A stretch of DNA of 12,164 nucleotides, taken from IMG/VR virus record IMGVR_UViG_2698536471_000010. One strand, written 5' to 3'. The stretch's first letter is position 1, and each line of letters begins with the position of its first letter. The DNA comes from a virus (Duplodnaviria; Heunggongvirae; Uroviricota; Caudoviricetes). The translations under genes and the position numbers were made by a program. The notes beneath the pieces are model-generated. The model searched no databases, had not been told where the DNA came from, and was given only the letters and a program-made list of their open reading frames with translations. Shown here one piece after another: positions 7,298 through 8,722 of the stretch.

Positions 7298-8374
7298 TTA
7301 TTCATCCTTCCCGTCATCAATTGAGCATGTAAGGATGTGACTAATCTCCTTAACGGTCTGCGCAAAACGTTCTGCCTCCAGTTCAACACCAGTTGCACGA
7401 CGCCCGAGCGCCATAGCTGCTTTTATGGTTGAGCCAGAACCCATGAAAAAATCCGCCACCAGGTCACCCGGACGACTGCTCGCGCAGATTATCTGCCGCA
7501 GCATTTCTGCCGGTTTTTCGCACGGATGTTTCCCTGGATAGTACTGCACCGGTTTATGCGTCCACACATCGGTGTACGGCACCTGCACCGTCACACCGAA
7601 ATACCGCCGCAAATTTTTATATTCACTCAGCAGTTCCATGTACTGTCGGTTCAGCTCACTGTATGTGCTGACCAGTTGGTAATGGGACTTTTCCAGTTCT
7701 CCCCGCTGATGTTTCTCTTCTGCCACCCGGGCAAACAGCGACTGTAATTTCAGATAATCGCTTTCGTTCGGTAGCTGCCACTGACTGGCACTGAACCAGT
7801 GCGACACCATGTTTTTCTTTCCTGTGGCATCTGCAATCTGTTTTGCTGTTATCCCAAGAGCAGCACGCGCATCACGAAAGTAAGAAATCAGCGGGGCCAT
7901 CACATGCTGTTTCAGTGCCCTGCCCTTCGCCTCATCGCCATCATCTTTCGGACGATACGGCCCCTGATAATGTTCCGCGAACAGAATGCGTTCTGTGGCC
8001 GGAAAATACGCCCGCAGGCTTTCCTTGTTGCACCCGTTCCAGCGTCCGGACGGCTTCGCCCAGATAATATGGTTCAGCACATTGAAGCGTTCACGCATCA
8101 TGATTTCAATGTCAGATGCCAGGCGATGGTCACAGAACAGGTAAAGACTTCCGGCAGGTTTCAGCACCCGCCAGAACTGCGCCAGACACTGGTCCAGCCA
8201 CTTCAGGTAATCATCGTCGCCCTTCCACTGGTTATCCCAGCCCTCGGGCTTCACTTTAAAGTATGGCGGGTCTGTGACTATCAGATCGACAGAGTTTTCC
8301 GGTAAGGTCTGGATAAATTCCAGGCAATCAGCGTTGATTAACTCACAACTGGATATTTTTACAGTATTAAGCAT
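7298..8374 (-). CDS. Orphan DNA methyltransferase, beta-class (N6-adenine or N4-cytosine)
   Basis: 358 aa with motif IV DPPY (DLIVTDPPY) near the N-terminus and the AdoMet-binding FxGxG-type motif I (DFFMGSGST) near the C-terminus. ATG start. No adjacent restriction endonuclease gene. Confidence 0.9.
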   Translation of the reverse strand: MLNTVKISSCELINADCLEFIQTLPENSVDLIVTDPPYFKVKPEGWDNQWKGDDDYLKWLDQCLAQFWRVLKPAGSLYLFCDHRLASDIEIMMRERFNVLNHIIWAKPSGRWNGCNKESLRAYFPATERILFAEHYQGPYRPKDDGDEAKGRALKQHVMAPLISYFRDARAALGITAKQIADATGKKNMVSHWFSASQWQLPNESDYLKLQSLFARVAEEKHQRGELEKSHYQLVSTYSELNRQYMELLSEYKNLRRYFGVTVQVPYTDVWTHKPVQYYPGKHPCEKPAEMLRQIICASSRPGDLVADFFMGSGSTIKAAMALGRRATGVELEAERFAQTVKEISHILTCSIDDGKDE

Positions 8375-8510
8375 GGATCATTAAGCCTGTCTCTGATAGG
8401 CTCATTCTGCTTTTGCGCAAAGCAGTGGGCCTGAGGTTTGCTTGTGAACCCAACGCATGAGCAGATGGCTGGTAGGTGCCCCTAACACCCACCAGCCGCC
8501 CATTTACCAC

Positions 8511-8538
8511 AAATAAAAAAGCCTTCACTGCGGAAGGC
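8511..8538 (-). terminator. Intrinsic terminator after the 65-aa ORF
   Basis: On the minus strand GCCTTC-CGCAGT-GAAGGC followed by TTTTTTATTT; overlaps the ORF stop codon. Confidence 0.55.
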
Positions 8539-8722
8539 GTCTGTAACAACCGAACTGATAGTCTGCCAGACCCGCCATAACAAGCTGGGTCAGTATTAAC
8601 TGGCAGCGTTCGCGTGAAAGGTAAGTATTCTGCGCAATCTCCCCGACTGTCGCCGGGTCGGTAACGCTTAATTCATTAAACACCACTCTGGCGGTTTCTG
8701 TCATATCCTGCTGTTTTAGCAT
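8525..8722 (-). CDS. Small putative winged-helix DNA-binding protein (65 aa)
   Basis: ATG with GGGA SD about 9 nt upstream; the segment TVGEIAQNTYLSRERCQLILTQLVMAGL looks like a helix-turn-helix; followed by an intrinsic terminator. Confidence 0.5.
   Translation of the reverse strand: MLKQQDMTETARVVFNELSVTDPATVGEIAQNTYLSRERCQLILTQLVMAGLADYQFGCYRRLPQ

Follow-up and report, generated by a model that had tools for sequence, protein, structure and literature searches.

How does a temperate phage keep silent, in the lysogen, a DNA methyltransferase that is harmful when it is made constitutively? This question is raised by a stretch of 12,164 nucleotides (nt) from a virus of the class Caudoviricetes (IMG/VR record IMGVR_UViG_2698536471_000010), which as a whole is called the window here. 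In it, a gene for a methyltransferase of 358 amino acids (aa) follows a Q-like late antiterminator gene, a gene for a 65-aa protein and a spacer. The reading that is favoured, and that is considered likely, is that of a late, Q-dependent module of the M.EcoGII type, which is silenced by terminators and by a leader and which protects progeny DNA. The methyltransferase in itself is ordinary, being one more allele of a characterised family that already serves in the laboratory, in MadID, chromatin-accessibility mapping and SUPREM. The novelty lies in the regulatory anatomy around it and above all in the leader, which appears to be undescribed. The elements of the locus, in the order of transcription, are as follows.

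8946-9512, minus strand: gene for a Q-like late antiterminator of 188 aa (DUF1133 at 3.7e-105; Phage_antitermQ at 5.9e-8)
8844-8874, minus strand: tR'-like intrinsic terminator, just downstream of Q
8525-8722, minus strand: gene for a 65-aa winged-helix protein (phrog_331)
8511-8538, minus strand: terminator P0, with its stem at 8521-8538 and a U-rich tail
8375-8512, minus strand: conserved leader of the methyltransferase messenger RNA (mRNA), about 140 nt
7298-8374, minus strand: gene for a solitary beta-class methyltransferase of 358 aa (PF01555)

The methyltransferase and its family

Over residues 29-340, the enzyme matches the Pfam family PF01555 (N6_N4_Mtase) with E=5.9e-43 and 147.8 bits (cut-off 26.7). 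Its DPPY motif is N-terminal (residues 35-38, at 8261-8272) and its FxGxG motif, in the form 'FFMGSGS', is C-terminal (residues 309-315, at 7433-7450). The enzyme is assigned to the beta class because DPPY precedes the target-recognition region, which is then followed by FxGxG; both motifs are invariant or nearly so in 253 relatives. No restriction endonuclease adjoins the gene; on one side it is neighboured by the winged-helix gene and Q, on the other by iraM, which is oppositely oriented, and by an esterase gene. An adjoining nuclease is also missing from the Klebsiella and Salmonella loci, and a PADLOC scan recognises the methyltransferase alone. An earlier note on the window, made from its letters, had described a solitary beta-class enzyme, and this description holds.

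The closest characterised enzyme is M.EcoGII, to which 320 of 350 residues are identical over the full length without large gaps (91%, an approximate value that tells somewhat against leaning on the comparison, as the reference was taken from the SUPREM supplement, PMC11551740, which is machine-read with evident errors). The central target-recognition region, placed at residues 160-237 in the part of that paper drawn upon here, aligns throughout. The window's allele differs from M.EcoGII by Asp in place of Gly at residue 82 (G82D) and by a distinct, longer C-terminal tail (358 against 349 aa). By its sequence, the enzyme is therefore placed in the M.EcoGI/M.EcoGII family of non-specific N6-adenine methyltransferases, as a new allele of a characterised family. 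The corresponding RefSeq protein is WP_000935499.1, and the exact protein is present on 498 contigs.

The catalytic and S-adenosylmethionine (SAM)-binding halves of the enzyme also align with the PDB 8URK/9C3U enzyme, M.RsrI, CcrM and M.MboIIA (E from 1e-15 to 1e-27). These enzymes, in contrast, are site-specific, and for the central region of the module's enzyme (about residues 120-280) no solved structure offers a counterpart. The SUPREM paper likewise gives an identity of less than 20% to known structures (PMC11551740).

According to the passages of PMC5778455 on which this account draws, M.EcoGII is a prophage enzyme of E. coli O104:H4 C227-11 and methylates adenine in any sequence context. 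Its constitutive production leads to slow, unstable growth, and lysogens do not express it; this lack of expression is the known natural control of the family. The same passages name the enzyme of phage 1720a-02 as a very close relative, and propose that the family shields progeny DNA from restriction. The earlier note had suggested the same protection of progeny DNA, and so finds a published parallel. For the window's enzyme, non-specific activity, constitutive harm and lysogen silence are thus taken over from the M.EcoGII literature and would apply by analogy.

It may be asked whether the enzyme is instead a site-specific epigenetic regulator in the lysogen, like Dam or CcrM, a role that the earlier note had also considered. 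It is a solitary enzyme of the same structural class as CcrM. Against this, the identity of 91% to a non-specific enzyme includes the target-recognition region, the gene is preceded by two terminators and by a leader that lacks a Shine-Dalgarno sequence, and the published relatives are silent in lysogens (PMC5778455, in the passages used) or, as with M.EcoGI/GII homologues in the methylomes of O111 Shiga toxin-producing E. coli, show no detectable motif in single-molecule real-time (SMRT) sequencing (PMC6602927). Such a role is thus very improbable. The earlier note had further expected a methylation motif attributable to the gene, to be found by comparing a lysogen with a cured strain, and had taken a missing motif as evidence against its reading. 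Neither the comparison nor a missing motif is informative, because M.EcoGII is non-specific and is unexpressed in lysogens. The comparison of methylomes would probably show nothing, and even from an active enzyme of the M.EcoGII family no motif is to be expected.

Two terminators between Q and the methyltransferase

The late operon begins at the Q-like gene, whose product also matches phrog_753 ('anti-termination protein Q-like') at 5.8e-81. Two terminator-like hairpins, each GC-rich and with a U-run, are predicted between it and the methyltransferase. The hairpin at 8844-8874 consists of an A-tract, a 13-bp GC stem and U7; its energy is -18.2 kcal/mol (z=-5.5), and none of 200 shuffled sequences was as stable. 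The other was found at 8521-8538 by terminator scan and folding, and has a 6-bp stem followed by U6AU3 (-9.6 kcal/mol). The stop codon of the 65-aa gene (8525-8527) spans the loop and the 3' arm of this terminator P0. Of 46 related loci, some of them devoid of the 65-aa gene, 44 have a GC-rich hairpin of variable sequence where P0 lies. The position behind two terminators in the late operon, as read in the earlier note, is therefore upheld. This late-operon site in a prophage, with the two predicted terminators upstream, would fit a methyltransferase that is silent in the lysogen.

The tR'-like hairpin also recalls a known arrangement in Shiga toxin (Stx) phages, in which similarity to the window begins just downstream of it, at about window 8856. 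As in the case of StxS (PMC7547250), a strong terminator directly after Q would give a short RNA in the lysogen. The stretch 8846-8919, from Q to the tR'-like terminator, is weakly isrK-like and may yield such a short PR'-tR' RNA. The likeness to StxS is one of position, and an RNA of this kind would lie upstream of the module and be distinct from the conserved leader. As a side observation, the Rfam matches to isrK on the minus strand are weak, both at 8846-8919 (E=0.059) and at 11655-11736 (E=0.034), and lie far under the gathering score.

A conserved leader tied to the methyltransferase gene

The spacer at 8375-8512 is the most conserved sequence of the module, and exceeds either gene in this respect, a point that the earlier note had missed. 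Between leaders from different genera, and between these and the leader of the window, identity is 82-86%, whereas the methyltransferase genes adjoining them are 70-72% identical at the nucleotide level and 38-41% at four-fold degenerate sites. A leader is found in 43 of 48 species-level loci, again including loci without the 65-aa gene. It occurs in Escherichia, Salmonella, Klebsiella, Citrobacter, Enterobacter, Kluyvera, Buttiauxella, Mixta, Erwinia, Rosenbergiella, Mangrovibacter and other genera, and the unit of leader and methyltransferase extends across Enterobacterales.

The leader is also closely tied to the methyltransferase gene. A pattern from its middle matched 120 IMG/VR contigs, and in 119 of them a methyltransferase start follows within 150 nt; the lone exception is a contig that ends 88 nt past the match. 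A covariance model built from 45 species-level leader sequences gives one strong match in the window (8372-8512, 126 bits, E about 1e-31) and finds nothing in four related loci that lack the leader. Among complete E. coli genomes, 2109 of 5426 (about 39%) are matched by a 189-nt query (8372-8560), which takes in the leader, the terminator next to it and the last part of the 65-aa gene. In 1869 of these the match covers at least 80% of the length, and up to seven places per genome are matched. Where the query matches, the RefSeq records listed carry annotation for the two flanking genes alone. Two copies of the leader (290-430 and 3275-3415) were seen on one viral contig, L184.

Within 20 nt before the methyltransferase AUG, no purine-rich sequence that could serve as a Shine-Dalgarno sequence is present. 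A GATC (8376-8379) lies beside the AUG, and at least 90% of the leaders in the alignment of 45 have kept it. Taken together, these features suggest that the leader is probably a cis-regulatory RNA that limits the expression of the methyltransferase.

Other identities were considered for the leader. A 60-aa open reading frame (ORF) at 8367-8549 was rejected as a coding sequence, since single-base indels between relatives break its frame. A hammerhead-like appearance ('CUGAUC...GAAA') is supported by no ribozyme model. Rfam 15 gave no match on the sense strand of the leader, either in a scan of the whole window at E<=1 or in one of 8340-8960 at E<=10. Literature searches on Stx-phage methyltransferases and on small RNAs of enterohaemorrhagic E. 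coli prophages likewise brought up nothing that describes the leader. The passages of the M.EcoGII papers drawn upon here mention neither the upstream terminator nor the leader nor the winged-helix gene. If the leader is a regulatory RNA, it would constitute a new family tied to a single gene, and would match, among lambdoid phages, the elaborate control that phage Mu exerts over mom.

Proposed fold of the leader

The fold that is proposed for the leader is a three-way junction (P1, P2 and P3) followed by two hairpins (P4 and P5). Its helices, and a further possible contact, are given below.

8498-8502 with 8426-8430, minus strand: P1, proposed helix
8486-8497 with 8467-8478, minus strand: P2, proposed helix
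8460-8465 with 8437-8442, minus strand: P3, proposed helix of 6 bp with a covarying pair, 8463:8439
8419-8425 with 8407-8413, minus strand: P4, proposed helix
8398-8404 with 8382-8388, minus strand: P5, proposed helix
8445-8450 with 8376-8380, minus strand: possible pairing of GGUUCA with UGAUC, directly 5' of the AUG

When 102 distinct sequences aligned with MAFFT were scanned for mutual information without bias, one clear signal emerged, which is the P3 pair. In this alignment it is U-A in 38 sequences, C-G in 36, A-U in 22 and U-G in 5, and it is never unpaired. An alignment of 100 distinct sequences to the model gives counts of 36 C-G, 36 U-A, 22 A-U and 5 U-G, again with none unpaired. 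At least about ten changes of state at this pair are required on the methyltransferase protein tree. In the divergent leader of L038, the entire P3 stem is exchanged for a different complementary sequence, and a double change from G-C to A-U is seen in P1 of L020. Over the whole junction model, 94% of pairs are canonical in the 45 species-level sequences, with a covariation of 0.073 against 0.044 in shuffled alignments (0 of 500 reaching the observed value). In the 100 distinct sequences, covariation is 0.096 against 0.055, also with 0 of 500 reaching it.

There are, nevertheless, points that tell against this fold. The alignment of 100 sequences was fitted to the model and so favours it. Most pairs of the leader are invariant or change on one side only, so that the support comes mainly from one strongly covarying pair, while several others covary weakly; the invariant pairs neither support nor contradict the model. 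Moreover, the minimum-free-energy (MFE) fold, like that of RNAalifold, differs from the fold supported by covariation. In the thermodynamic optimum, which comprises P1' and a long closing helix, AUGGGC is paired with GCUCAU, and GGUCA with the UGAUC that immediately precedes the AUG. Pairing in the helices of the MFE fold is kept at 98-99.6%, with changes that are one-sided and of the wobble type only, and the potential for GGUCA to pair with UGAUC is kept in 97.7% of cells. The two folds lie about 4 kcal/mol apart on average and share nucleotides. The contact between GGUCA and UGAUC could coexist with the junction model as a pseudoknot. The leader could accordingly have a fixed, pseudoknotted fold, it could be a two-state switch, or the MFE fold could be an artefact.

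The second of these possibilities may be put more sharply. The leader could belong to a new class of RNA switch, in which two exclusive sets of helices, namely P1' with the closing helix before the AUG and the three-way junction of P1 and P3, gate the translation of the methyltransferase in response to a trans-acting trigger. Both sets keep their pairing potential in every species examined. The trigger might be the 65-aa protein, in the manner of Com and mom, SAM or S-adenosylhomocysteine, or the methyltransferase acting on its own mRNA. A switch of this kind, its two helix sets and its possible triggers are put forward tentatively, as an idea that is somewhat doubtful.

The same conservation might reflect an element of DNA and not of RNA, such as an operator at the P4 palindrome, a promoter of the methyltransferase or a recombination boundary among lambdoid phages. 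In favour of this, the sequence of P4 hardly varies and is almost perfectly palindromic (in many species GCTTTAGC/GCTAAAGC), the GATC beside the ATG is near-invariant, most helices show no compensatory change, and the borders of the module in Stx phages fall near these sequences. However, the P3 pair switches among four pairing states without ever being unpaired, L038 replaces its whole P3 stem with another complementary one and L020 changes both sides of a P1 pair; the G-U pairs, too, fit the sense strand only. In addition, the promoter scan found no convincing minus-strand match to a sigma-70 promoter within the leader or for the 65-aa gene. A purely DNA-level explanation is therefore held to be quite unlikely, and the leader is treated in what follows as a probable regulatory RNA.

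The 65-aa winged-helix protein

The 65-aa protein was predicted by AlphaFold2 with a predicted local distance difference test score (pLDDT) of 91.8 on average, with helices at residues 9-16, 26-33 and 37-49 and strands at 53-56 and 59-62. Foldseek matched the model to winged-helix domains of MarR, IclR and O-methyltransferase proteins at template-modelling (TM) scores of 0.66-0.81. The protein can thus be modelled with confidence as a winged helix of three helices and a beta-hairpin wing, and the earlier note, which had called it winged-helix-like and had given it a terminator of its own, was correct on both counts. It matches phrog_331 at 2.8e-37. The name 'TrmB family' that databases give to it is automatic and weakly founded, because the match to the Pfam family TrmB (PF01978) misses the threshold (17.3 bits under a cut-off of 25.6, E=0.0044); there is no match in NCBIfam. 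Across genera, the protein has a mean identity of 77% at the amino acid level against 37% at four-fold degenerate sites, a pattern that identifies the ORF as a real gene under strong purifying selection. The exact sequence is present on at least 1000 contigs.

An exhaustive profile search of 1.84 billion representatives gave 85 clusters at 50% identity for this family. Nearly all of its members are stand-alone proteins of about 110 aa or less, along with two long proteins that have weak, repeated partial matches, and no informative fusion was found. The sequence search of the PDB gave marginal matches only, and PADLOC gave nothing meaningful. A winged-helix domain that senses N6-methyladenine, such as that of DpnI, is absent from the 50 best structure matches listed, and no direct comparison with it was made.

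Is this protein needed for the control of the methyltransferase? In phage Mu, com-mom provides a late, harmful, broad-spectrum anti-restriction modification of adenine, and a small gene and a structured leader precede it. The Com protein of Mu is a zinc-finger protein. The module resembles com-mom in having a small upstream gene and a structured leader that possibly hides the start codon. It differs in being lambdoid and probably Q-dependent, in having a winged helix as the small protein, which is dispensable for the cohesion of the module, and in a much larger leader of about 140 nt with several helices. The 65-aa protein may be pictured as a Com-like activator, which would bind the leader RNA or the DNA of the P4 palindrome and open a hidden methyltransferase start; the enzyme would then be made only after the first late gene has been translated. 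The place of the small gene, directly upstream of a harmful DNA-modification gene with a structured leader and no Shine-Dalgarno sequence, agrees with this picture, as does the strong purifying selection on the protein. The gene is linked to the methyltransferase in 99 of the 110 viral contigs that have enough upstream sequence, and it is directly upstream of it in 30 of 48 species-level loci. It may be added that the non-specific adenine methyltransferases Hia5, Hin1523 and Nma1821 occupy the mom slot of Mu-like prophages (PMC3299994), and that in L021 and L025 a 79-aa CxxC...CxxC protein replaces the winged-helix gene.

The distribution of the gene, on the other hand, speaks against an obligatory activator. 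It is missing from the remaining 11 viral contigs and from 12-13 of about 45 leader-bearing species-level loci; in the latter the leader is unchanged, and unrelated cargo takes the place of the gene between Q and the methyltransferase. The leader of L037, a locus without the gene, is even identical in sequence to that of L030, a locus with it. Furthermore, Com is a zinc finger and not a winged helix, and no RNA-binding signature was found in the 65-aa protein, its structural matches being generic winged helices for DNA binding or dimerisation. A strict need for the 65-aa protein is disfavoured because it is absent from many loci in which the leader is unchanged, and activation in the manner of Com is considered unlikely, in its binding step as well as in the order of translation that it implies. 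As to the more general idea of the earlier note, that the protein could be a regulator, the evidence weighs neither for it nor against it. As it is absent from 12-13 of the leader-bearing loci, the protein is a frequent but dispensable co-transcribed neighbour, which is not needed to maintain the unit of leader and methyltransferase. The 79-aa protein of L021 and L025 (both at 2558-2797, plus strand) has no Pfam match, and by its cysteine pairs it recalls the zinc-finger Com of phage Mu.

Proposed mechanism

The favoured reading, a late M.EcoGII-type module held down by its terminators and its leader, can be set out as a sequence of steps. In the lysogen, the tR'-like terminator would end the transcripts that start at the late promoter. 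Any that escape it, as well as transcription entering from cargo upstream, would be halted by the second terminator, which overlaps the 65-aa stop codon. The leader, which is without a Shine-Dalgarno sequence, would probably fold with the bases just 5' of the AUG paired, resulting in low translation. Transcription and translation would thus both be held down, because of the two terminators and the structured leader, and this would fit an enzyme that is harmful when constitutive. After induction, RNA polymerase modified by Q would pass both terminators. The enzyme would then methylate adenines of the replicating phage DNA in any context, and the progeny DNA would thereby be shielded from many adenine-methylation-sensitive restriction systems of the next host. 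Four points in this sequence are what we infer: that it depends on Q, that it serves against restriction, that the leader is regulatory and that the G82D allele is active. The post-Q placement, the two terminators and the conserved leader without a Shine-Dalgarno sequence would supply a concrete anatomy for the lysogen silence of the family.

Several findings weigh against this reading. The promoter PR' was not located, as a promoter scan of the stretch from Q to tR' yielded no convincing candidate. Many species have only weak U-tracts behind the second hairpin. The activity of the G82D allele is uncertain, and this copy may be weak or dead. Along with this, 12 of the 253 related methyltransferase loci contain internal stops (L074, L078, L079, L081, L082, L084, L100, L106, L110, L135, L136 and L178), and decay of the methyltransferase gene is therefore common. 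In L005, the winged-helix gene and the leader are kept and the methyltransferase is reduced to its first 45 codons.

Residue 82 of the window's enzyme is Asp (codon GAC, 8129-8131, minus strand). It follows directly after the beta-strand 'SLYLFC', which is itself the next strand after that of DPPY, and it presumably lies near the active site. Among the 253 relatives from the fetched loci, 251 have Gly here, and Asp is confined to the window's allele. G82D is a lineage variant and not a sequencing error, because the exact allele is found on 498 contigs.

The window's copy could therefore be a crippled or inactive relic, in which G82D impairs the enzyme and the module is carried passively by a decaying prophage. 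The near-invariance of the glycine and the restriction of Asp to a single allele point this way. So do the nearest relatives, L059 and L060, which differ from the window's protein solely at residues 82 and 358, and M.RsrI, which also has Gly at the aligned position. The internal stops of the related loci, and the state of the same prophage in strain 2013C-4974, which is broken by IS3 elements and frameshifts, are in keeping with decay. Yet the methyltransferase ORF is full length and its DPPY and FxGxG motifs are unchanged, so that the mutations of catalytic motifs that the earlier note had thought worth looking for are absent, G82D lying outside them at what is elsewhere a nearly invariant glycine. 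The PDB 8URK enzyme has Thr at the aligned position, which shows that the site is not absolutely fixed in the class. The presence of the allele on 498 contigs means that it persists in a successful lineage, and the lysis genes and the esterase gene of the window are intact. A relic is hence a possibility to be kept in mind, although a rather doubtful one, and an active late module is still preferred.

Locus layout and origin of the module

The window represents the late part of a lambdoid prophage of E. coli. E. coli chromosomes, for example that of strain 2013C-4974, match window 6100-9000 at 100% identity. The order of genes on the minus strand is hokD/sok, rem, the DUF968 gene, rusA, the Q-like gene, the 65-aa gene and the methyltransferase gene. 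Further along this strand, past a gap that holds iraM, are a sialate-esterase-like gene, small late genes, and genes for a holin, an endolysin and Rz. The module forms the first cargo of the late operon. Across genera, the module follows at least four unrelated families of Q (DUF1133, PF06323, PF03589 and PF06530). The features of the window outside the module are listed here.

11745-12069, minus strand: hokD/sok toxin-antitoxin locus (sok RF01794, 118 bits), at the left end of a nin-like region
9881-10930, minus strand: DUF968 gene
9509-9868, minus strand: rusA
6377-6703, plus strand: iraM, encoding an anti-adaptor that stabilises RpoS (NCBIfam NF007393 at 1.6e-42)
4138-6102, minus strand: intact sialate-esterase-like gene of 654 aa (DUF1737, SASA and DUF6645 domains)

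The two-gene block of the 65-aa gene and the methyltransferase recurs, together with the spacer, in phages that carry Shiga toxin genes. In the Stx2e phage phiP27, the pair L23/L24 stands directly after Q, as does, in Stx2a, Stx2c and Stx2d phages, a pair annotated as 'hypothetical protein' and 'DNA methylase'; these are 87-93% identical to the window at the nucleotide level over 7356-8856. Phage 1720a-02, whose enzyme is the close relative of M.EcoGII mentioned above, has the same module of 65-aa gene, leader and methyltransferase. The nucleotide identity of the methyltransferase gene is 92.6% to Stx2a phages and 86.9% to L24 of phiP27, and that of the module to 1720a-02 is 91.9%. These phages differ from the window in what comes next. 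In phiP27 and the Stx phages, the methyltransferase is followed by tRNA genes and stxAB, whereas the window has iraM on the opposite strand, and no tRNA genes were found in it between the methyltransferase and the lysis genes. Since the module lies upstream of stx in the Stx phages, it may be speculated that effects of the leader and the terminators could bear on the expression of the toxin.

The gene iraM is convergent with late transcription and fills the slot that is held by the tRNA genes and stxAB in Stx phages. In strain 2013C-4974, the esterase-like gene is annotated as frameshifted (L001, 7040-8976), and IS3 elements also interrupt the prophage there. Because this gene is intact in the window, the window derives from a less decayed copy of the prophage than that of strain 2013C-4974. 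About 110 nt past the methyltransferase stop, at 7163-7186, there is a stable GC hairpin (-17.4 kcal/mol, z=-3.5), which neither strand follows up with a clear U-tract. A weak Esr41-like match lies at 4060-4136 on the plus strand, opposite to the late genes and a little beyond the esterase gene, with 30.9 bits against a gathering score of 102.

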